Part shown: piece by piece, positions 1 through 12,079 of the stretch
Layout: every line of letters starts with the position of its first letter
Numbering within the stretch: the first letter of the stretch is position 1
DNA from: a virus
Strand: one strand, 5' to 3'
Length of the DNA stretch: 12,079 nucleotides
UHGV virus genome: UHGV-0141735
Notes under the pieces: model-generated
Database searches by the model: none
The model's input: the letters and a program-made list of their open reading frames with translations, nothing else
What the model was told of the DNA's origin: nothing
Position numbers and translations under genes: made by a program

Positions 1-49
1 TTTGGTCGTTTTAGGCGTTTTTAATGCTCTGCCGCCAAAGTGTCGCCAC

Positions 50-1285
50 TTACGTGTGCAGTGTATGTTCGATTTTTTGATGTTTGAATAACCGATCAAC
101 CAATAATTCAAGTTTGTGAAAATCTGTAAGAGGATATAGCTTCACGATGTCTTCCTCAAAATTCGCTATACCTGATAATTTTTCTTTTTTTCGTAAGTAA
201 TCGATGGCAATTCTTTGTTCATTCGATATCTCAAACTGATTTTGATAATCTAAGGTTTTAAGTACTTGCCAAGACATAGGGGCTGTAAATTCGAAGTAAG
301 AAGCTAGTTTTGGACAAAAATCATATTGAATAGATTGCTTATAGGTTGCTTTAGGTGGTAATACAACATTAACAGAATATTTACTGCTCCTAGAATTCGG
401 CATTTTTGTAGAGTAATATGCTATCCCCGCTATTGGTGATTTAACCCGACGACCGATCCACTGCATTAATAAATTTGGGATTATATATTCAGGTGTGAAT
501 GATGAATTTTCTACGCGTTTTAAATAATTGCAAGCGATTAGTAATGGCCAGAATATCAAGTATGATGCTTTTGTTCTGTTTTCATCATATATTTTATTTT
601 CATCAACAGTTTTTTTAATTGGAAGTGAAAGGTGAGGAGAAGCAAAATTTAAAATTGTTGAATTTACATCGTTTGTAACGAAGGATGATATATATAATTT
701 ATCAAAATCTGGCTTTCCCATCTCTTGCCAACATACGTACAAGGATGTACCGAGATATAAGCAGGGTTGGCCTGCGACTGAATATCTTTGAGCATTCACT
801 AAATGTCTTTTTGAAAACGGAATATGAAATATTTGGTTGTGCTCAATCAAAGGGGTTTCTGATTTTCTGACCCGATAAAGTGGCTTTTCCTTATTGCAAA
901 AATCTTTTAGCAAGATACTAATTCGATTTAGTTGGGCTATTGTTGCCTCCTTTGACATAATGTCATCGAAAATGTCATATGCTTTTTTAATATCTCCAGA
1001 CAAAAACTCCTCTAGAGTTTTTTGTATGCACTTATGAATATTTGCAACTCGTCCTTTTAGAACTCTAAGTTCCCTACCGCATCCATTCATGTCTGCTTTT
1101 ATTGATTCATCAATTAAAGTCATATAAATTTTACATCGATTAGAAAAATCACTGGCTATATCGCCTTTAATGTTGAATGGTGGATTTAATTCTTCATGGC
1201 TCAATAGTCGCTCAAGAAAGTGATCAATCCAGAGTGCATTTTTCTTTTCTGATTCTAATTGAGTACTGGATTTTTTTTCGTCCAT
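50..1285 (-). CDS. Hypothetical AT-rich cargo protein (411 aa) with a central RES-like (Arg-Glu-Ser, NAD+-targeting toxin-type) region; function unproven
   Basis: Intact 411-codon ORF. Its ATG (1283-1285 on the minus strand) lies 4 nt downstream of the int stop, same orientation. Sample 60-nt lines count about 27-30% GC by hand, against about 60% in a gpA line. Motifs LYRVRK, then QRYSVAGQPCLYLGTSLYVCWQE, then AYYSTK...SVNVVLPP resemble the RES-domain core pattern (R ... G.P.LY.s.s...A..E ... S). Pattern-level only. Confidence 0.6.
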   Translation of the reverse strand: MDEKKSSTQLESEKKNALWIDHFLERLLSHEELNPPFNIKGDIASDFSNRCKIYMTLIDESIKADMNGCGRELRVLKGRVANIHKCIQKTLEEFLSGDIKKAYDIFDDIMSKEATIAQLNRISILLKDFCNKEKPLYRVRKSETPLIEHNQIFHIPFSKRHLVNAQRYSVAGQPCLYLGTSLYVCWQEMGKPDFDKLYISSFVTNDVNSTILNFASPHLSLPIKKTVDENKIYDENRTKASYLIFWPLLIACNYLKRVENSSFTPEYIIPNLLMQWIGRRVKSPIAGIAYYSTKMPNSRSSKYSVNVVLPPKATYKQSIQYDFCPKLASYFEFTAPMSWQVLKTLDYQNQFEISNEQRIAIDYLRKKEKLSGIANFEEDIVKLYPLTDFHKLELLVDRLFKHQKIEHTLHT

Positions 1286-1289
1286 GTTT

Positions 1290-2306
1290 TCACTCTATAT
1301 AGTTTAAAGGATTTTTAGTTACCGCATCCTCCAGATGATCTGGAGAAAAGTGCGCATAAATCATGGTCATTTTTATATCGGCATGGCCTAAAATTTCTTT
1401 AAGCACAAGTATGTTTCCTCCGTTCATCATAAAATGGCTGGCGAATGTATGACGTAATACATGGGTGCATTGACCCTCAGGAAGCTCAATATCGGCCCGC
1501 TTTACTGCACGCTCAAAGGCTTTTCTGCATGGTGAGAATAACTTCCCTCGATTTTTAGGAAGTTCGTTGTACAGATCCTGAGATATTGGCACGGTACGGT
1601 TTTTCTTGCCCTTCGTCTTGGTATAAGTGATGCGGTATTTGGATAATTGATGGCCCTGCAGATTTTCTGCTTCACTCCACCGTGCGCCAGTAGCTAGGCA
1701 TATTTTTGCAATCATTAGTAAGCTAGGGCTTTGAGATTCAGCACATGCCGCCAACAGGCGCTTGATTTCGTCCGTGGAAAGAAAAGCCAGCTCACCTTCG
1801 GCAATTTTGAAGGTCGGAAGTCCTGCCAGCGGGTTTGGTGCTGACCAGTGTCCTAGTTTTTTTAATGTACCGAACACCGATGATAGATTGCGCTGTTCAA
1901 GGTTTACCGTGCGGGGCTTAACGGGCGACATAAGCGTGCCATCTTCATTTCGTATTTCACCTTTTAACCGTGCTTCGCGGTATTTCGTAAAGTCTCCGGC
2001 TGTCAGTTCTGAGGCGATGGGGTCGCCTAGGCCATTACAGATAATTCTAAGTTTCGCCATGAGGCGCTTGGGGTCTGCGAGTGTCTGACCATACAGGGAA
2101 TACCAAAGCTCAATTAATTCTGATAGGCGTCGCCGATCATCCTTTTCACCCAACCACGGTTTTTTATTCACTTCTTCCATTGTGAAGCTTTCAAACGCAA
2201 TGGCTTCGCCTTTCGTGGCAAATTGCTTACGCACGCGCTTGCCATTGCGTCCATTGGGATAGCACTCGCACAACCATTTTCCGTTCGGCTGTTTTCTGAT
2301 GGTCAT
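1290..2306 (-). CDS. int: Tyrosine recombinase / phage integrase, P2/186 Int family
   Basis: 338 aa. C-terminal catalytic signature HVLRHTFASHFMMNGGNILVLKEILGHADIKMTMIYAHF (HxxR ... Y nucleophile), an upstream TGARWSEA box, and N-terminal GRNGKRVRKQF...AFE typical of P2-type Int. Its start is 1 nt from the repressor stop, the C-int operon layout. Confidence 0.95.
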   Translation of the reverse strand: MTIRKQPNGKWLCECYPNGRNGKRVRKQFATKGEAIAFESFTMEEVNKKPWLGEKDDRRRLSELIELWYSLYGQTLADPKRLMAKLRIICNGLGDPIASELTAGDFTKYREARLKGEIRNEDGTLMSPVKPRTVNLEQRNLSSVFGTLKKLGHWSAPNPLAGLPTFKIAEGELAFLSTDEIKRLLAACAESQSPSLLMIAKICLATGARWSEAENLQGHQLSKYRITYTKTKGKKNRTVPISQDLYNELPKNRGKLFSPCRKAFERAVKRADIELPEGQCTHVLRHTFASHFMMNGGNILVLKEILGHADIKMTMIYAHFSPDHLEDAVTKNPLNYIE

Positions 2307-2307
2307 A

Positions 2308-2940
2308 TCAAAGGCTCTTAATGATTTTCAGTGCGCGGCCTACTACCTCAATGTCATCCAGACCGCACTCAAACGATGAATCATCCTGATGCACTACTAA
2401 TTTGTTTCCCGGGAGTCGTGTCAATTTAACAATGCTTTTTATCCCGTCGATGTCCACTAACCACATACCATTTACTGGTGGTGTTTGGTTGCGATCTATT
2501 AAATAAGAATCACCAGAAGTAGTCACCAGCAGCAGGTTGCTTGAATCTGAGGGGAGTATGCTGCTATCAATGATTGCTTTTCCCGCATCGATCAATAAAC
2601 CACCGTTGAGAGTCGCCTTGTCAATTTCAGGAGATACTAGTTCAGAAAGAGGTACAACCTTGCTGGAGTTCACGGAATTGATATTTTTTTTAGGTTCAAT
2701 GTTTGGACCTGGCTCCCCCTGTCCGGTGGTTAGCCACAGTAAAGAAACTCCTGTTTCCAAGGCGCACTGAATCACCCACTCTGCAGGAAAACTATCTCTT
2801 AAGTATCTGTTTGCCATGGTGCTTTTTGATGCGCCTAAGTGATCGCAAAGTTGCTGTCTGGACTTGAAATCATAGGCTGCCATTAGTCTATGGATAGCCT
2901 CTCTTCCCCCTGTATTCTCTCCAACCTTTACCTGTATCAT
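2308..2940 (-). CDS. cI: Phage CI-type immunity repressor (N-terminal HTH, C-terminal oligomerisation/regulatory domain)
   Basis: 210 aa. Transcribed leftward from the early control region directly into int. N-terminus (RLMAAYDFKSRQQLCDHLGASKSTMANRYLR) looks like a phage CI-repressor HTH. The position matches 186 cI / P2 C. Confidence 0.8.
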   Translation of the reverse strand: MIQVKVGENTGGREAIHRLMAAYDFKSRQQLCDHLGASKSTMANRYLRDSFPAEWVIQCALETGVSLLWLTTGQGEPGPNIEPKKNINSVNSSKVVPLSELVSPEIDKATLNGGLLIDAGKAIIDSSILPSDSSNLLLVTTSGDSYLIDRNQTPPVNGMWLVDIDGIKSIVKLTRLPGNKLVVHQDDSSFECGLDDIEVVGRALKIIKSL

Positions 2941-2952
2941 TTTTTAATCCTG

Positions 2953-2981
2953 TTGACGTATCAAATATTGGATCGTAGTAT
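2953..2981 (+). promoter_or_regulatory. Candidate rightward early (lytic) promoter: -35 TTGACG (2953-2958), 17-bp spacer, -10 TAGTAT (2976-2981)
   Basis: Sigma70-like hexamers with 17-bp spacing, about 80 bp upstream of the first rightward gene (3060) and just upstream of the repressor start. Position is equivalent to pR/Pe of 186/P2. Confidence 0.45.
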
Positions 2982-3000
2982 CTCGATGTATCAAATATTG
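2958..3000. promoter_or_regulatory. Two identical 13-bp direct repeats GTATCAAATATTG (2958-2970 and 2988-3000) flanking the candidate -10; putative repressor operators
   Basis: Exact 13-bp direct repeat, 30 bp centre to centre, bracketing the -10 hexamer. P2-type C repressors are known to bind direct repeats flanking the early promoter -10. Confidence 0.45.
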
Positions 3001-3059
3001 AATCAAGTAAAACGAGATAAAACGACGTAAACCAAACCTTAATCGGGAGATACTGCACT

Positions 3060-3302
3060 ATGAGCACTGATATTTCAATTCGTGTACCAAAAGAGATGGC
3101 TACGCCTGCAGAGTTCGCGGAATGGGAAGGTATCTCCCGCGGCTCTGTGTATCAAAAAATTCACCATGGTCAGCTTGCTAAATACATGGTCAAGAAAGAA
3201 AAAAACAAAGGCCGCGTAAGCCTGCGTTATTTAATGTACAAAACCGATCAGGTCCGTGAATCCCTCGGTCATTCCAACTTCCGCGTCATTGTTGGTAAGT
3301 AA
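3060..3302 (+). CDS. Small DNA-binding regulator, Apl/Cox-like (excisionase / early-switch protein) by position
   Basis: 80 aa, first gene of the rightward operon opposite the repressor, as apl in 186 and cox in P2. Basic C-terminus, possible HTH (GISRGSVYQKIHHGQ). Positional inference. Confidence 0.55.
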   Translation: MSTDISIRVPKEMATPAEFAEWEGISRGSVYQKIHHGQLAKYMVKKEKNKGRVSLRYLMYKTDQVRESLGHSNFRVIVGK

Positions 3303-3334
3303 GTTCAATTATGAGAACTTTCTAAGGGGGTAGC

Positions 3335-3844
3335 ATGTTTGATTATAAGATTTCCAAACACCCGCATTTTGATGAAGCCTGTAGAGCTTTTGCACTTCGT
3401 CACAATATGGCGAAGCTGGCAGAACGTGCAGGAATGAATGTCCAGACTCTGCGAAACAAACTCAACCCAGATCAACCGCATCAGCTCAATGCGCCAGATA
3501 TCTGGCTACTTACCGATCTGACGGAAGATTCAACGCTGGTAGACGGTTTTCTGGCACAGATTCACTGCCTGCCATGTGTACCGATTAATGAGGTGGCAAA
3601 AGAGAAACTGCCACATTACGTCATGAGTGCAACCGCAGAGATCGGGCGTGTTGCTGCAGGTGCGGTATCTGGCGATGTAAAAACCAGTGCAGGTCGTCGT
3701 GATGCTATCAGCAGCATTAACTCTGTTACACGACTGATGGCGTTAGCTGCTGTTTCATTGCAGGCCCGTTTACAGGTTAATCCTGCGATGGCAAGTGCAG
3801 TTGATACTGTAACTGGCCTCGGTGCTTCATTCGGTTTGCTGTGA
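3335..3844 (+). CDS. cII: CII-like transcriptional activator (186 CII family)
   Basis: 169 aa. Strong RBS (AAGGGGG) 6 nt upstream. HTH-like segment NMAKLAERAGMNVQTLRNKLN. Position (second gene of early operon) and length match 186 CII as recalled from memory. Confidence 0.65.
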   Translation: MFDYKISKHPHFDEACRAFALRHNMAKLAERAGMNVQTLRNKLNPDQPHQLNAPDIWLLTDLTEDSTLVDGFLAQIHCLPCVPINEVAKEKLPHYVMSATAEIGRVAAGAVSGDVKTSAGRRDAISSINSVTRLMALAAVSLQARLQVNPAMASAVDTVTGLGASFGLL

Positions 3845-3851
3845 GGTGCTT

Positions 3852-4052
3852 ATGCTGACGAAAGAACCATCATTTGCATCGCTGCTGGTAAAACAAAGTC
3901 CGGCAATGCACTACGGTCACGGCTGGATCATGGGTGAGGATGGTAAACGCTGGCATCCGTGCCGTTCACAAGATGAATTGCTGGCAGAACTATCTACGAA
4001 AAAACGGGGGAACAAATGGCTATTGAAGGCGCTGCGGCGACTGTTCCATTAA
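3852..4052 (+). CDS. Small early protein of unknown function (positional equivalent of 186 fil / P2 orf78)
   Basis: ATG at 3852 preceded by GAGG 5 nt upstream, 8 nt after the cII stop. The longer ORF-track version starts at a GTG inside cII and is less likely. Confidence 0.45.
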   Translation: MLTKEPSFASLLVKQSPAMHYGHGWIMGEDGKRWHPCRSQDELLAELSTKKRGNKWLLKALRRLFH

Positions 4053-4357
4053 GCCCCGGTGAACGCCTGAATGGACTTAATCACATAGCGGAATTAAGGG
4101 CGAAAGTTTTTGGCCTGAATATTGAGTCAGAGCTTGAGCGGTTTATTAAAGATATGCGTGATCCACGGGATATCAATAACGAACAAAATAAACGAGCACT
4201 GGCAGCCATATTCTTTATGGCAAAAATTCCGGCTGAACGTCATAGCATCAGCATCAATGAGCTGACCACTGACGAAAAGCGGGAGTTGATTAAAGCAATG
4301 AATCATTTTCGTGCAGTGGTGAGCTTATTTCCCAGACGGCTAACCATGCCGAATTAA
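4016..4357 (+). CDS. Hypothetical early protein (113 aa)
   Basis: ORF with GGGGGA RBS 4 nt upstream of ATG 4016. Overlaps the previous small ORF by 37 nt. No recognisable motifs. Confidence 0.45.
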   Translation: MAIEGAAATVPLSPGERLNGLNHIAELRAKVFGLNIESELERFIKDMRDPRDINNEQNKRALAAIFFMAKIPAERHSISINELTTDEKRELIKAMNHFRAVVSLFPRRLTMPN

Positions 4358-4424
4358 CCAACTAATGAAATTAATGGCGTAAACCCGCCGGGCATCCCTT
4401 TATCTAAATTCAGGAGAATTGATT

Positions 4425-4658
4425 ATGCGTAATATTGAAATCCTCACGACTAAAACCGGACCGGATGATGCTGGGCTTAATATTTTACTGACAGAGGCTC
4501 GTCTGGAAGAACGCCGGGCAAGGGCTGAAGCAATGGCAGCTCGCCTTGATAGCCTGGCGTGTCATATCTCATCCCGTCAGCTAAACCACGTGGAAGCGGC
4601 AGAACTGCTGCGTGTGACTGCTGAAGCAATCCAGAACGAAGCGCAGGAGATCCACTAA
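4425..4658 (+). CDS. Hypothetical early protein (77 aa, Arg/Ala/Glu-rich, likely coiled coil)
   Basis: AGGAG RBS 8 nt upstream of ATG 4425. Its stop overlaps the start of the next gene (TAATG). Confidence 0.5.
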   Translation: MRNIEILTTKTGPDDAGLNILLTEARLEERRARAEAMAARLDSLACHISSRQLNHVEAAELLRVTAEAIQNEAQEIH

Positions 4659-4885
4659 TGGCTGATGCAATGGATCTCGTACAGCAGCGCGTTGAAGAAG
4701 AACGCCAGCGCCATATCCGTGCTGCCCGTGCCAAAACACCGGGCGTGTCTCGCGTGCTTTGCATTGAGTGTGAAGCGCCAATTCCGCCAGCACGCCGCCG
4801 TGCCATTCCGGGTGTGCAGCTTTGCATTACCTGCCAGGAAATTGCAGAGCTGAAAGGCAAACATTACAACGGAGGTGCTGTATGA
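4658..4885 (+). CDS. TraR/DksA-family C4 zinc-finger protein
   Basis: 75 aa with CIECEAPIPPARRRAIPGVQLCITCQ (CxxC-x17-CxxC), as in TraR/DksA-like small proteins common in P2-like early operons. Start and stop are overlap-coupled with neighbours. Confidence 0.75.
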   Translation: MADAMDLVQQRVEEERQRHIRAARAKTPGVSRVLCIECEAPIPPARRRAIPGVQLCITCQEIAELKGKHYNGGAV

Positions 4886-5736
4886 GCACCATCCTGAAAT
4901 GGGCGGGAAATAAAACCGCCATTATGTCCGAACTGAAAAAACACCTTCCTGCTGGCCCGCGACTGGTTGAACCTTTCGCGGGTTCCTGTGCAGTGATGAT
5001 GGAGACGGATTACCCCAGCTATCTGGTTGCGGATATTAATCCTGATTTAATCAACCTCTATAAAAAGGTTGCCGCTGATTGTGAATCGTTTATATCTCGC
5101 GCCAGAGTTTTATTTGAGAACGCAAACAGGGAGATGGATTATTACAACATAAGGCAGGAGTTTAATTACTCAACTGAAATTACTGATTTCATGAAAGCGG
5201 TATATTTCCTGTATCTCAATCGTCACGGTTACCGTGGTTTATGCCGCTATAACAAGAGCGGGCATTTCAACATTCCCTACGGTAATTATAAAAATCCGTA
5301 TTTCCCTGAAAAAGAAATTCGCGCATTTGCAGAAAAAGCCCAGCGGGCAACGTTTATCTGCGCCAGCTTTGATGAAACGCTGGCGATGTTGAAAGCGGGG
5401 GATGTGGTGTATTGCGATCCGCCGTATGACGGTACGTTTTCCGGCTATCACACTGATGGTTTCACTGAAGATGACCAGTATCACCTGGCATCCGTTCTTG
5501 AACATCGAGCATCTGAAGGACATCCGGTCATTGTTTCTAACAGTGACACGTCTTTGACCCGGTCTCTTTATCGTAATTTCACTCACCACTACATCAGGGC
5601 GAAACGCAGCATCGGCGTTGCAGCGGGGGAGGGAAAATTTGCAACAGAGATGATTGCCACTAAATCTGCTAATTGGTTTAGTGCCGATTTTAGTAGGGGA
5701 CGTGACTCTACTGTTATTTTCGGGGTGCAAGTGTGA
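4882..5736 (+). CDS. dam: DNA adenine methyltransferase (Dam family, GATC N6-adenine MTase)
   Basis: N-terminal LKWAGNK...LVEPFAGS (AdoMet-binding motif), [19 protein letters not shown], and catalytic VYCDPPY; near-collinear with E. coli Dam. True start is ATG 4882 (GGAGGTG RBS, ATGA overlap with upstream stop), not the longer 4822 ORF. Confidence 0.95.
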
Positions 5737-6563
5737 AAGAAATGCACCACGGAATTCATCATTTCCATGGGACGCCTGTCTGGGGAAGTGCTGGCGACGT
5801 TCATCGTATTGCGGTGAGCGGAGCTGGTGCTTTCGTCTCCTATGTACGACCAGATCAGATTGCGGCGTCCATTCAGCACGCTCAGGTCGTCGGCATTGAT
5901 AACGGCGCATTTTCTGCATGGGTGCGTGGGCTAAAAATTAACTGGAGTGATTTTTATAAATGGCTCCTGAACTATTACCACCATCCTAAGGTCGCTTTTT
6001 TTGTCATTCCTGATGTTGTGGACGGAGGTGAACGTGACAATGATGCCCTGATAAACGAAGTTCCGAAAATGTTCTACGGGAAGGCAACTCCCGTCTGGCA
6101 TCTGCACGAGTCAATCGATCGGCTTATCGAGCTATGTCGTGAATGGCCTCGTGTCTGCTTTGGATCGTCTGGTGAATATGCGGCTATTAGAACTGCGCAC
6201 TGGCATCGTCGTATGCAGGACGCTTTTGAAGCAATTTATTGCCGACACAATTTCAAAACAGCTGTTCATGGTTTGCGCATGCTTGACGGTCGTGTGTTGG
6301 GAAATTACCCACTGGCGACTGCCGACAGTACAAATCTTGCCTGCAATGTCCCCAAATTTAATAGCAAATATCCTGAGCTTACGCGGGCTATTCAGGAGGC
6401 TGAGTATTCGCGCAATCTGACGGAAAAGGAGCTGAAAGCTGTCATTCTGAAAAACCGTTGCGCAATTTTAAAAGGTGCAATTGAAGCTGTTCGCCCACCT
6501 TCAGTTTCTGACTGGCTGTCGAATGGTTTGCAGCCTTCACAGCTCGAACTGGAGATTGCGTAA
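5733..6563 (+). CDS. Conserved hypothetical protein (276 aa); possible TGT/DpdA-like DNA-modification enzyme (speculative)
   Basis: Start (GTG 5733 or ATG 5742) overlaps the dam stop and its stop overlaps the gpA start (TAATG), so it is translationally coupled inside the early operon. [12 protein letters not shown] resembles the DSGGFQ catalytic-Asp motif of tRNA-guanine transglycosylase-fold proteins, but the Cys/His zinc site is not evident. Confidence 0.6.
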
Positions 6564-8935
6564 TGAACTACAGCTATTCCTGGAATGCTGAGAAAAAAGC
6601 AATCAATCCTTACGTAGAGACAGAAGAGCAATCTTCAGTTTCTGCGCTTTCAAACCTGATCACTCTGTACGCTGTCGATAACGAGCAGGAACAACTGCGT
6701 CGCGAGGCACTGAGTGATCAGGTCTGGGAGCGTTATTTCTTTAATGAATCCCGTGATCCTGTCCAACGCGAAATGGAGCAGGATAAGCTCATTAGTCGGG
6801 CAAAGCTGGCGCATGAGCAGCAGCGTTTTAATCCGGATATGGTCATTCTGGCGGACGTCAACGCCCAGCCTTCCCATATCAGCAAGCCGCTGATGCAACG
6901 TATTGAATACTTCAGCAGCCTGGGCAGGCCAAAGGCTTATTCCCGCTATTTGCGTGAGACGATTAAGCCATGTCTGGAACGGCTGGAGCATGTACGCGAC
7001 AGTCAGCTATCCACTTCTTTTCGCTTTATTGCGAGCCATGAAGGGCTGGACGGCCTGCTGATCCTGCCTGAAATGAGTCAGGATCAGGTGAAACGCCTGT
7101 CCACCCTGGTAGCTGCGCATATGAGCATGTGCCTTGATGCCGCTTGTGGTGATTTGTACGCCACCGATGATGTTAAGCCAGAAGAAATCCGCAAGACATG
7201 GGAAAAGGTGGCAGCGGAAACCCTGCGTCTGGATGTCATCCCGCCTGCGTTTGAGCAACTCCGCCGGAAAAGAAACCGCCGTAAACCCGTGCCCTATGAA
7301 CTCATTCCGGGTTCGCTGGCGCGTATGTTGTGCGCTGACTGGTGGTACCGGAAATTATGGAAGATGCGTTGCGAATGGCGGGAAGAGCAGTTGCGTGCTG
7401 TCTGCCTTGTCAGCAAAAAAGCATCTCCCTATGTCAGCTATGAAGCCGTGATGCATAAACGTGAGCAGCGCCGTAAGTCGCTGGAGTTTTTCCGTTCTCA
7501 TGAACTGGTGAACGAAGACGGCGACACGCTGGACATGGAGGATGTGGTAAACGCCAGCAGCAGCAACCCTGCGCATCGCCGCAATGAGATGATGGCCTGT
7601 GTTAAAGGTCTGGAGCTTATCGCGGAAATGCGTGGCGACTGCGCCGTTTTCTACACCATCACCTGTCCGTCACGTTTCCATTCCACGCTAAATAACGGCA
7701 GGCCCAACCCGACCTGGACAAATGCGACGGTAAGACAAAGCAGTGATTATCTGGTCGGCATGTTTGCTGCATTTCGTAAGGCGATGCACAAAGCCGGATT
7801 GCGCTGGTATGGCGTGCGGGTGGCTGAGCCGCATCATGACGGCACAGTTCACTGGCACCTGTTGTGTTTTATGCGCAAAAAAGACCGCCGCGCCATTACT
7901 GCTTTGTTGCGTAAGTTTGCCATTCGTGAAGACTGCGAGGAGCTGGGTAATAACACGGGGCCACGCTTTAAGTCTGAGCTGATAAACCCGCGCAAAGGAA
8001 CGCCGACAAGCTACATCGCGAAATATATCAGCAAGAACATTGACGGGCGTGGTCTGGCTGGCGAGATCAGCAAGGAAACGGGTAAATCTCTGCGTGATAA
8101 CGCTGAATACGTGAATGCCTGGGCGTCTTTGCATCGTGTTCAGCAATTCCGCTTCTTTGGTATTCCGGGACGTCAGGCTTACCGTGAACTTCGCTTGCTG
8201 GCTGGTCAGGCGGCAAGGCAACAGGGTGACAAAAAAGCAGGTGCGCCGGTACTGGATAACCCGCGTCTTGATGCCATTCTGGCTGCTGCTGATGCTGGTT
8301 GTTTTGCCACCTACATCATGAAGCAGGGCGGCGTACTGGTTCCCCGTAAATATCACCTCATCAGAACCGCTTATGAAATCAACGAAGAGCCGACCGCCTA
8401 TGGCGATCACGGTATTCGTATTTATGGCATCTGGTCACCCATTGCAGAGGGCAAGATCTGCACTCATGCAGTGAAGTGGAAAATGGTTCGTAAAGCCGTT
8501 GACGTTCAGGAGGCGGCAGCCGACCAGGGCGCTTGCGCCCCTTGGACTCGTGGCAATAACTGTCCCTTTGCTGAAAATTTGAACCAACAGGAGAAAGATA
8601 AATCAGCTGATGGGGACCCCAGAACGGACATTACCAGCATGGATGACAAGGAGTTGCACGATTACCTGCACAGTATGAGCAAAAAAGAGCGCCGGGAACT
8701 GGCAGCAAGGTTACGCCTGGTGAAACCGAAACGGCGTAAAGACTACAAACAGCGAATTACAGACCATCAGCGACTGCAGCTCGTGTATGAGCTGAAGTCC
8801 AGAGGATTTGATGGCAGCGAGAAAGAGGTCGATTTACTCCTTCGCGGAGGCAGTATTCCGTCAGGAGCAGGCCTGCGTATCTTCTATCGGAACCAGCGTT
8901 TGCAGGAAGATGATCAGTGGCGGAACCTGTATTAA
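6563..8935 (+). CDS. A: Rolling-circle replication initiator endonuclease (P2 gpA family, HUH relaxase-type)
   Basis: 790 aa. HUH motif VHWHLLCF and paired catalytic tyrosines YIAKYISK (YxxKY) in the expected order and spacing. Size and position match P2/186 gene A. Confidence 0.9.
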
Positions 8936-9029
8936 TTACGCGGGTTAACAATTCGTGCTCTTAATAATACCAGGCATATCAGGCTGATGAACGTAAAAAA
9001 ACGTTTTACATCAGTAAGATTATTATATA

Positions 9030-9045
9030 CTGTAAATATAAACAG
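9030..9045. promoter_or_regulatory. LexA (SOS) box CTGTAAATATAAACAG
   Basis: Perfect CTGT-N8-ACAG palindrome, AT-rich centre, flanks TA...TG (tactgtaaatataaacagtg), about 44 bp upstream of ATG 9089. Confidence 0.55.
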
Positions 9046-9088
9046 TGGTTATACATACAGTATTGCGTGTGGTGTCATAGGAGGAAAG

Positions 9089-9277
9089 ATGCAGGACTAT
9101 TTTTTGGAGTCTTTGAAGCTCCAGCGCATTGATTTTTTTCTTAAGCTTGTAGCGGCTAGTGAGTGTAGTGATGAAGAGAAGGGGCTGGCTCTGCAGTGGG
9201 TTTCTGAATTGACTGATGAACTCATGGCAAAAATCAGAACCCACGAATACAACCGCTCAATGGATGTCATCAGCTGA
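9089..9277 (+). CDS. Small hypothetical protein (62 aa), first gene of the SOS-controlled module
   Basis: ATG 9089 with AGGAGG 4-5 nt upstream, downstream of the LexA box. The longer 8987 start would place the LexA box inside the coding region, so the short form is preferred. Confidence 0.4.
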   Translation: MQDYFLESLKLQRIDFFLKLVAASECSDEEKGLALQWVSELTDELMAKIRTHEYNRSMDVIS

Positions 9278-9854: not shown

Positions 9855-10553
9855 ATGGTTATGTTAGTGGATGACTGTCCACGATGTGGATCACAAAAAA
9901 TAGCGTTTGATGTTAATGGGCTGAATTGCACTAGGGTTTACAATGCATTGGGCGGGGGTAAAACATACGAGTACGAGGTCTATTGTGTTTGCCGAGAGTG
10001 TCATAAAACGACAATGTTTCTTTGCAGACCTTTAACGAAAAATAAAAATTTAGATGGCTATAATTGGGAAAGTGGAATATTCGGCTTAAAGGAAGTTGCA
10101 GAGGTTGTTAGGCCTATATCACCGGCAGACTTAGCAGTAGAGGAGCCACCAGAGTTCTTACCTGAGCATATCAATAGTGCATATGAGGAAGGGGCGAAAT
10201 GTTTGGCTATAGGTTGTTATAATGCAGCAGCAACCATGTTTAGGCTTTGCCTTGATTATGCCACAAAAGGACTTCTTCCTGATGGGGAGCAAGGGCCTGC
10301 GCAAAAAATAAGGAGAAGCCTAGGGTTAAGAATGGAGTGGTTATTTGATAATCATCTACTGCCTGAAGCTTTAAGGGAACTAGCTGAATGCGTTAAAGAT
10401 GACGGAAATGATGGAGCGCATGAAGGTATTTTGGATAAAGCTGCTGCTGAGGATCTTGAAGATTTTACCTATCTTTTTTTAGAACGGCTTTACACTGAAC
10501 CTCAACGCCTTATCGAAGCCAAGACAAGGCGTGAACAAAGAAGAAACAAATAA
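9855..10553 (+). CDS. AT-rich cargo protein (232 aa): N-terminal four-Cys zinc ribbon plus acidic all-alpha C-terminal domain; unknown function, defence candidate
   Basis: Strong RBS AGGGAGGAG 8 nt upstream of ATG 9855 and an AT-rich upstream region. CPRCG...CVCRECH zinc ribbon. C-terminal LRELAECVKDDGNDGAHEG motif. Sits between the cos-like site and the portal stop (8-bp gap), convergent with the portal fragment. Confidence 0.75.
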   Translation: MVMLVDDCPRCGSQKIAFDVNGLNCTRVYNALGGGKTYEYEVYCVCRECHKTTMFLCRPLTKNKNLDGYNWESGIFGLKEVAEVVRPISPADLAVEEPPEFLPEHINSAYEEGAKCLAIGCYNAAATMFRLCLDYATKGLLPDGEQGPAQKIRRSLGLRMEWLFDNHLLPEALRELAECVKDDGNDGAHEGILDKAAAEDLEDFTYLFLERLYTEPQRLIEAKTRREQRRNK

Positions 10554-10561
10554 GTTCGGAA

Positions 10562-11200
10562 TTATTCTTCTGAAAGAATATAGGGCGTAAATTTAATCAC
10601 TTCTTCGCCCAGCCAGTCGTTCAGCTCTTGTAGCCTTTTTTGCAAGGGCGTTAATTCATTACGTACAAATACGCGACTGGCCTTCTCCACATCCCCAAAC
10701 CCTCCAACATTATTAGGCATAATCCCCATCATTTGCGGCGGCACGCGGTGCGCAGCCATCATGTCGTCGCGGCTGACATTTTTGATATTCAAAAACTCAT
10801 CCTTCGCCGCGACTTCTGACAATGGGATGATCTGAAGCCCGTCTTTTTTGCCGTTAGGCGAGTACATAAACAGGTTGCGGAAGTTGCCTGGACCTTTGGC
10901 GCTTTTCATCGCATTGCGGAGGTTGTTCACATCCTCCTGGTTTTGCGCGGCATCGGTCATGTACATGATAAAGCCCGCATGACTGCCGTTAATGTAATAC
11001 TTGCGACGGAACAGCGTGGCGGACTCGTTGAGCAGGGCTGACGGAATGGCAGAAAGATAACCGGGCAGGCCGTAGATCTCCTGATTAATATCCGGTTCCA
11101 TCAGATGAAAAATGCTGCCTTTCGTGAACTGATACGGCTGGGTTGTCATACCGTATTGCACAAACCAGTAGGTAACGGTTTTACGACCAGTATTGAACTT
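10562..11200 (-). pseudogene. Q: 5'-truncated portal gene (P2 gpQ family), C-terminal roughly 210 codons retained
   Basis: From about TGRKTVTYWFVQ to the C-terminus (DMMAAHRVPPQMMGIMPNNVGGFGDVEKASRVFVRNELTPLQKRLQELNDWLGEEV) the translation reads as a portal protein. The ORF's N-terminal 45 residues are low-complexity and overlap the ogr start, so the upstream boundary (about 11200) is approximate. Confidence 0.65.
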
Positions 11201-11301
11201 GAAGTGAAAATTGGTGATCTTGAAATGGAATAAATGGTTCTCAATATTGATATTTTGTGTATCATTGCAATGATTCTGATAGCAAAGGTAGGGATCTGGA
11301 T

Positions 11302-11520
11302 ATGATGAATTGTCCAAAGTGTGGTCATGCGGCGCACACAAGGAGCAGTTTTCAAGTAACAGAAAGCACCAAAGAGCGTTACTGCCAGTGCCAAAATATT
11401 AACTGCGGGAGCACTTTTGTTACCCATGAAACAGTGGTCCGGTTTATTGTGACACCTGCAGTGATTGCCACAGCCCCTCCACATCCATTGCCAGGTGGTC
11501 AGGGCCATATGAATTTTTAA
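11302..11520 (+). CDS. ogr: Ogr/Delta-family zinc-finger late-gene transcriptional activator
   Basis: MMNCPKCGHAAHTRSS...KERYCQCQNINCGSTFVTHETVVRFIV...PHPLPGGQ is collinear with P2 Ogr (CxxC-x22-CxC-x4-C). Start at ATG 11302 preferred over the longer 11257 ORF. Confidence 0.9.
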   Translation: MMNCPKCGHAAHTRSSFQVTESTKERYCQCQNINCGSTFVTHETVVRFIVTPAVIATAPPHPLPGGQGHMNF

Positions 11521-11527
11521 GAAAGAG

Positions 11528-11549
11528 AACCTGCTACGGCAGGTTTTTA
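11528..11549 (+). terminator. Hairpin plus T-tract after ogr (AACCTGC-TACG-GCAGGTT-TTTTA)
   Basis: 7-bp stem, 4-nt loop, followed by TTTTTA. The stop of the convergent minus-strand gene lies in the T-tract. Confidence 0.45.
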
Positions 11550-12029
11550 TTCATCTGGGATCTCACCCGTTTCAAGAAAATGTATAAAGCCAGGCTCATC
11601 TATGATGATAGTGCCTTTCATCCTGGCTGCCGATACTTTTGATGGGCCTGCATTGTAACCGCAACAGAGCATCTGAAGGTTTTGGGTTACAGATGTTCTT
11701 ACCGTTAATCCTTGTTCATTCGCCTTATCAACCAACCTTTCTTTATCTGCTTTCTTAAATCCGGTGAAACACACATCGAATGTATTTTTTTTCGGACCTG
11801 ACTGCTTAGTGAGATGTGAGTAGTTTTCGGGGAGGAATGACGCGCATTCCTGAATGGCTTGTTCTTGTGAATCGTATTGTTTAAGAATGCGGTCTTTTCG
11901 GAAGGTTTTTATTCGATCGGTGTTCTTACAAATGCCCTGTATGTGATTTTCGCTATAACTGATGCTCTGTATTGAGTGAACACCGATACGACCATTTGCA
12001 TTGATGTAAACAAAGTGAAGTTCTTCCAT
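11547..12029 (-). CDS. Small BRCT-domain protein (160 aa) with a beta-rich N-terminal domain; unknown function
   Basis: Good SD (AAGAGG) upstream of ATG. C-terminal VCFTGFKKADKERLVDKANEQGLTVRTSVTQNLQMLCCGYNAGPSKVSAARMKGTIIIDEPGFIHFLETGE fits the BRCT pattern (hydrophobic-TG start, central G-G/S-K, C-terminal hydrophobic acidic end). AT-rich relative to the prophage core. Confidence 0.65.
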   Translation of the reverse strand: MEELHFVYINANGRIGVHSIQSISYSENHIQGICKNTDRIKTFRKDRILKQYDSQEQAIQECASFLPENYSHLTKQSGPKKNTFDVCFTGFKKADKERLVDKANEQGLTVRTSVTQNLQMLCCGYNAGPSKVSAARMKGTIIIDEPGFIHFLETGEIPDE

Positions 12030-12079
12030 GTCAAACCTCTTTGCATGATTTCAAGATGGCGACAGGCAAGATGGACGCA

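Follow-up and report, generated by a model that had tools for sequence, protein, structure and literature searches.

A stretch of 12,079 nucleotides (nt) from the viral genome UHGV-0141735, referred to here as the window, carries the early region of an E. coli prophage of the 186/Fels-2-like kind, which is defective. Directly behind the tyrosine integrase gene of this prophage we found a gene for a 411-amino-acid (aa) protein with a divergent RES domain, which we propose may act on nicotinamide adenine dinucleotide (NAD+) as a phage-carried anti-phage protein. This RES-like gene and its immediate surroundings are laid out as follows.

50..1285, minus strand: RES-like gene, whole (411 aa), from the list of open reading frames (ORFs); stop codon at 50-52
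1286..1289, minus strand: 4-nt spacer from the int stop codon (TGA) to the ATG of the RES-like gene, read directly from the sequence
1290..2306, minus strand: tyrosine integrase gene (int), directly upstream of the RES-like gene; Pfam Int_N 1e-29, Phage_integrase 3e-24
2308..2940, minus strand: 186-type CI repressor gene (cI), first of the cI-int-RES triplet; Pfam Phage_CI_repr 5e-31, Phage_CI_C 7e-28
1..49, no strand: start of a conserved att-proximal arm (~160 nt), whose far end, just beyond the left edge of the window, is the ssrA 3' end

Read along the minus strand, the sequence across the junction is ...TATATAGAG TGA AAAC ATG GAC..., with the int stop codon at 1290-1292 and the ATG at 1283-1285, confirming the original prediction, made by a model from the letters alone, that the ORF starts 4 nt past the int stop on the same strand. 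The cI, int and RES-like ORFs are co-directional, with gaps of 1 nt (cI-int) and 4 nt (int-RES). Between int and the RES-like gene no internal promoter or terminator was predicted, site counts not exceeding shuffled expectation, and therefore co-transcription with cI and int is the simplest reading; the gene is probably transcribed together with them in the lysogen.

The int-att cargo slot

The RES-like ORF has a GC content of 33.3% and a GC at third codon positions of 26.9%, compared with a GC content of 46.4% for int, 44.4% for cI, 52.5% for gpA and 47.6% for the remainder of the window. The compositional break described from the letters alone is thus real, but its size had been overstated, as the figures of 27-30% against about 60% GC were those of extreme 60-nt lines and not means (such lines range from 22 to 47% in the RES-like ORF and from 38 to 65% in gpA). 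The accompanying idea that the gene was acquired as AT-rich cargo is essentially right.

Homologues lie directly after int in Escherichia phage Cartapus, in the Salmonella phages RE-2010 and SopEPhi and in Cronobacter prophages, and the int junction is tight in relatives as well: 9 nt separate the two genes in Cartapus and RE-2010, and in the Cronobacter prophages they overlap by 17 nt. The att arm that follows is 80-84% identical over ~160 nt among the E. coli H2, Cartapus, RE-2010 and Cronobacter prophages; it stops at ...GGGTTCAACTCCCGCCAGCTCCACCA, the ssrA 3' end, beyond which the sequences diverge. In these prophages the ssrA-derived att core is placed ~130-170 nt downstream of the stop codon. 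The possibility that this is a host gene beyond attL is ruled out, since the att core is on the distal side of the gene and the gene is also present in free phages. In 224 other E. coli records int is present at 81-96% DNA identity and the similarity ends at the int stop, and in four sibling prophages (L005-L008) the same slot, inside the phage, codes for a different protein in each: two unknown ones of 510 and 506 aa, one of the HNH type and an anti-phage dCTP deaminase (PADLOC 2e-146). These data show that the RES-like gene belongs to a 186/Fels-2-like temperate phage as accessory cargo and is not host DNA. The int-att interval of P2-like phages is reported to be a minor hotspot for defence genes, with 3% of the P2-borne systems (NAR 2026, PMC13586616), and the RES-like gene shares this location with such defence cargo (Rousset et al. 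2022, PMC9122126; PMC13586616), although int-att is not among the two main hotspots and the gene is not a PADLOC-recognised system.

Among 5,426 complete E. coli genomes, this particular allele was found in 1 and relatives at the DNA level in 42. Compared with that of E. coli H2, it differs by a 1-nt indel at codon 405, which changes its last seven residues. In H2 and several relatives the ORF continues into the att arm and ends in '...G(D/G)TLAAEH*' (L001, positions 12001-12060); because the ORF runs into this conserved arm, it is att-arm DNA (GGCGACACTTTGGCGGCAGAGCATTAA) that encodes the shared C-terminal tail, which has probably not been under selection as a protein motif.

The RES domain and its family

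A structure model (AF2; mean confidence score, pLDDT, 88.7; template-modelling score, pTM, 0.89) divides the protein into three parts.

911..1285, minus strand: N-terminal all-helical domain, residues 1-125, modelled as five helices; a candidate for a regulatory or sensor role
251..895, minus strand: divergent RES catalytic domain of the ADP-ribosyltransferase (ART) superfamily, residues 131-345, with a variable insert at residues 201-245
53..250, minus strand: C-terminal helical extension, residues 346-411, with model helices at 355-370, 376-382 and 388-399

The model adopts the RES/ADP-ribosyltransferase fold, its best fold match being the NAD+ phosphorylase MbcT, and all of its solved structural relatives are toxins of type II toxin-antitoxin (TA) systems. 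The C-terminal extension (~65 aa) and the insert within the RES core had not been mentioned in the original prediction. The motifs on which that prediction was based, LYRVRK, QRYSVAGQPCLYLGTSLYVCWQE and AYYSTK...SVNVVLPP, are all present in the translation and fall at the most conserved columns of the family, and the Arg/Glu/Ser signature, together with the active-site Tyr and Asn, occurs in the canonical order. Indeed, none of R138, R140, R167, Y177, E188, S292 and N306 varies among 30 enterobacterial orthologues. Mean pairwise identity among the orthologues is 30% in the N-terminal domain (residues 1-95), 34% in the insert and 41% in the C-terminus, and 63-78% in the RES core (mean of 78% in the catalytic core). 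This pattern of a conserved enzyme with fast-evolving flanks fits, but does not prove, a recognition or regulatory role for the flanks.

The RES identity is not decided by sequence alone. The window protein scores 13.6 bits (E=0.068) on Pfam RES (PF08808), below the gathering threshold of 23.2 bits, over an alignment spanning only profile positions 2-50, the first third, and phmmer and hmmsearch comparisons with PDB sequences, using the protein, the 30 orthologues and 59 diverse relatives, returned helical-bundle noise and no RES toxin, both of which count against our proposal. NCBIfam gave nothing for the window protein and Foldseek found nothing with E<0.1 among the BFVD viral structures. 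Of the tests proposed with the prediction, the HMMER comparison with Pfam RES fell below threshold, whereas the structure prediction returned a RES fold. The gap is bridged by relatives: the homologue YopC of phage SPbeta scores 22.4 bits on Pfam RES, and 25 of the 59 relatives (23-44% identity to the window protein) match it at E<0.01, the best at 6.3e-6, with no other Pfam family recurring among them.

A second line of support comes from aRES, a group of standalone RES proteins of defence islands which, on infection, convert NAD+ into nicotinamide and ADP-ribose-1''-phosphate (ADPR-1P) and arrest growth (Osterman et al., bioRxiv 10.64898/2026.01.28.702374). Alanine substitution of R182, R184, R215, Y225, E236 or S334 abolished defence by aRES, and phages counter it with a NARP1-associated phosphatase and with the inhibitor aRad1 (bioRxiv 10.64898/2026.01.28.702374). 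In profile-profile alignments (E=1.4e-5 to 8e-5), R138, R140, R167, Y177, E188 and S292 of the window protein correspond to these six residues in that order, and N306 aligns with aRES N349. These six positions, which do not vary among the orthologues, are 88-100% conserved in the 59 distant relatives. Because of the sequence bridges through YopC and other relatives and of this active-site alignment, the RES assignment is supported, and the protein is a very divergent RES-fold enzyme; by analogy with these better-known proteins, we infer that it would cleave NAD+.

The family to which it belongs is large. The protein matches PHROG 7835 (E=6e-142), which is of unknown function, and has 330 close homologues, and a full HMMER scan recovered 2,686 cluster representatives at 50% identity, mostly of 360-400 aa and with the same layout, nearly all of which are labelled 'hypothetical' in their records. 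YopC itself, taken together with PHROG 7835/12013/37055, is a true homologue, with 32% identity over residues 79-344 (E=6e-42), and both proteins combine a helical region with a RES domain and are carried by temperate phages; they differ in host phylum and phage type, and YopC, at 442 aa, has a longer N-terminus and a helix-turn-helix (HTH) gene upstream. On sequence grounds these ~2,700 clusters form a family separate from aRES, which may be called 'YopC-like'. In the literature we found no functional study of any member, the lone mention of a close relative being the annotation of the Cartapus homologue as 'putative RES protein, NAD+ binding domain', and the name yopC is absent from the ten top-ranked SPbeta papers.

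Function and its alternatives

The original prediction also held that the RES-like protein has no antitoxin gene in view, and this was borne out by Pfam scans of the annotated window proteins, which detected no Xre/COG5642-type antitoxin domain in any window ORF, only the standard 186-type early genes. Its upstream neighbour is int and downstream lies the att site, so no adjacent Xre-HTH/COG5642 gene of the MbcA/ParS type accompanies it. The Xre-RES TA toxins (MbcT, P. putida Res, ParT, NatT and VPA0770), in contrast, are described as being encoded alongside such an antitoxin, and the matching solved chains have 144-250 residues as opposed to 411, with the window protein adding N- and C-terminal helical domains and showing a similarity under the Pfam threshold. 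In SPbeta, a 75-aa HTH_26 gene, yopB, stands directly before yopC, recalling the Xre-RES order (L004, positions 2279-3942), and in another SPbeta-like phage (L018) a 210-aa gene separates the HTH gene from the RES-like gene. A conserved HTH or antitoxin partner was considered and rejected, as the yopB order is not kept in this second phage or in the enterobacterial, plasmid-like or restriction-modification (R-M) island contexts.

The closest characterised system is aRES. Both are single genes for proteins of 300-600 aa in which an N-terminal non-catalytic region precedes the RES domain, both lack an adjacent antitoxin, and both are found in Enterobacteriaceae, where mobile elements or defence loci carry them. 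However, their RES domains are alike at the profile level only: as a proxy for an HHsearch probability above 80% to Pfam RES, hhalign of the family profile against those of aRES returned probabilities of 79.9% with 3 sequences, 60.9% with 41 sequences and 65.7% with the RES domains alone, and BLASTP pairwise similarity was not significant. The window protein also lacks the zinc ribbon of aRES and HEPN_RES_NTD1 (PF18870), the domain required by the aRES authors' detection rule; PF18870 matches aRES UC5 at E=3.6e-4, whereas the N-terminal domain of the window protein gave no PF18870 match at E<=10 and no match to another Pfam family. In addition, aRES scores 53 bits on Pfam RES and bears the NCBI name 'RES family NAD+ phosphorylase', whereas the window family is 'hypothetical', and B. 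subtilis, the host of the SPbeta yopC homologue, is missing from the published aRES gene list. Direct membership of aRES was rejected, given the absence of BLASTP similarity and of PF18870 and the unrelated N-terminal domains. By analogy, nevertheless, the window protein probably works like aRES.

Taken together, we favour the view, to which we give a probability of roughly 0.55, that this is a standalone phage-carried RES enzyme acting on NAD+ and resembling aRES, which would protect the cell from phages by abortive infection; in this the overall interpretation offered originally is supported and appears essentially right. By analogy with aRES and the RES toxins, the enzyme would need no separate antitoxin to stay inactive in uninfected cells, where its own flanking domains might restrain it, until a superinfecting phage switched it on. 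The RES domain would then cleave NAD+, probably by phosphorolysis, to nicotinamide and ADPR-1''-phosphate, and the loss of NAD+ would arrest the cell and abort replication of the competitor phage.

Several further observations weigh against this proposal. PADLOC (2.0) recognised neither the window protein, nor YopC, nor one distant member of the family. When the N-terminal domains of the window family and aRES were compared by hhalign, the probability was 1% (at most 1% for N- and C-terminal regions), and as these domains are unrelated, trigger and regulation are not transferable from aRES. In LF82 lysogens, the Cartapus homologue is not among the genes that exceed the local prophage-region background 5-fold or more, a level at which cI itself only just stands (5-fold). 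Finally, the host element is defective, its late genes having been deleted, so that any present-day benefit would fall to the bacterium only.

The position of the gene beside the lysogeny module cI-int, the fact that every solved structural relative is a type II TA toxin and the presence of yopB directly upstream of yopC would each suit a toxin of an unrecognised TA or addiction module that stabilises the prophage and has no anti-phage role, with the role of antitoxin falling to a small product that is not annotated, to an HTH protein from another part of the phage or to the toxin's own flanking domains. We consider this unlikely, however, because the window ORFs hold no Xre/COG5642-type domain and the upstream neighbour, at 4 nt, is int, because the HTH gene is not adjacent in the other SPbeta-like phage and the neighbours of relatives are wholly different, and because a 411-aa protein with two extra domains is unlike the solved RES toxins. 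It also seems improbable that the RES domain is a protein ADP-ribosyltransferase directed at a specific host or phage target, as ParT is at Prs, and not a bulk NAD+ degrader, a reading under which the role could still be defence. The conservation of all six residues needed for NAD+-depleting defence by aRES and the best fold match to MbcT, both weakly discriminating, speak against such a transferase.

Infective temperate phages carry the family, including the virulence-converting SopEPhi, and the int-side position would permit expression in the lysogen, so that some other benefit to the phage may be considered, such as counter-defence, manipulation of host NAD metabolism in lysogeny or induction, lysogenic conversion or virulence. 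This appears quite improbable, as no secretion signal or effector-like feature was seen, conjugative elements and R-M/GmrSD islands both harbour relatives, and a known defence gene occupies the same slot in sibling prophages. We give very little credence, lastly, to a decaying non-functional remnant in a defective prophage; the lost late genes, the indel that alters the final seven residues relative to H2 and the occurrence of the allele in a single complete E. coli genome would agree with decay, but the frame is intact over 411 codons, the catalytic and core residues are all kept, and the indel touches only a low-confidence tail, which in H2 reads into the att arm.

The view that the protein is an aRES-like defence enzyme can be extended, although tentatively and with some doubt, to the whole family. 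It is possible that its members form a second, sequence-distinct lineage of standalone anti-phage RES NAD+ phosphorylases, with a new helical sensor domain and a trigger other than that of aRES, carried as lysogen-expressed cargo by temperate phages of Proteobacteria (in the 186/Fels-2-like int-att slot) and Firmicutes (SPbeta), and maybe insensitive to aRad1. If the enzymes are active, a large unannotated group, for which PADLOC has no model, would join the bacterial and prophage defences that destroy NAD+, and a function would be available for SPbeta YopC and for the int-adjacent gene of Fels-2, RE-2010, SopEPhi and Cartapus. Such activity would also provide a natural comparison of unrelated N-terminal domains switching on the same RES chemistry, and would mean that P2-like phages can carry, in their small int-att slot, immunity that consists of one gene and moves with the phage. 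As defence by RES proteins has already been published for aRES (2026), this would be an extension to a new family and not a new principle.

Contexts of the relatives and the rest of the prophage

The neighbours of the RES-like gene differ completely among distant relatives, one of which has a conjugative-element setting. One distant member is flanked by hsdS and a GmrSD gene within a type I R-M locus (L017, positions 1-9101). Another comes after genes for a DUF4747 protein and for a protein of 194 aa, separated by 6-19 nt (L014, positions 2496-5152), perhaps as an operon of three genes, and may be a multi-gene variant.

Apart from the RES-like gene, the window holds cI, int, an apl/cox-like gene, cII (CP76), fil, genes for DUF5347, DUF2732 and TraR/DksA zinc-finger proteins, dam, gpA and DinI. 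At its far end (10562-11520), the portal ORF (10562..11341, minus strand) aligns with the 321-position Phage_portal profile at positions 100-277 only, and it abuts and overlaps ogr (11257..11520, plus strand), and this truncated portal overlapping ogr indicates that the whole late structural region between the two has been deleted. In E. coli H2 there is a related remnant, in which the fragments that persist (portal, tape measure, gpU and gpD) are a different set.

Other ORFs of the window may also be of interest. A 232-aa DUF4145 protein (9855-10553) with a weak PADLOC match to PD-T7-4 (E=1.2e-6) lies in the classical gpA-portal defence hotspot, a slot in which the near-identical H2 element has a Lamassu pair (LmuA 4e-143, LmuB 8e-254). 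Between dam and gpA, a 276-aa ORF (5733-6563) without a Pfam or PADLOC match is missing from the otherwise near-identical H2 prophage and present in a Cronobacter prophage (L011), and may be further variable cargo. Adjoining ogr and the att site, a 160-aa ORF (11547-12029) has a C-terminal BRCT-like region and weakly resembles the PADLOC candidate PDC-S48 at the latter's C-terminus; its Cartapus counterpart ('putative exonuclease') stands 15-fold above the local prophage-region background in LF82 lysogens, which marks it as an expressed moron. In strain H2, beyond attL (L001, positions 3183-4499), we also observed stacked integrated elements that encode DarT-NADAR (a further system based on ADP-ribosylation), a cytosine methyltransferase and a type II endonuclease with a frameshift, which makes the ssrA locus of that strain a composite defence island.
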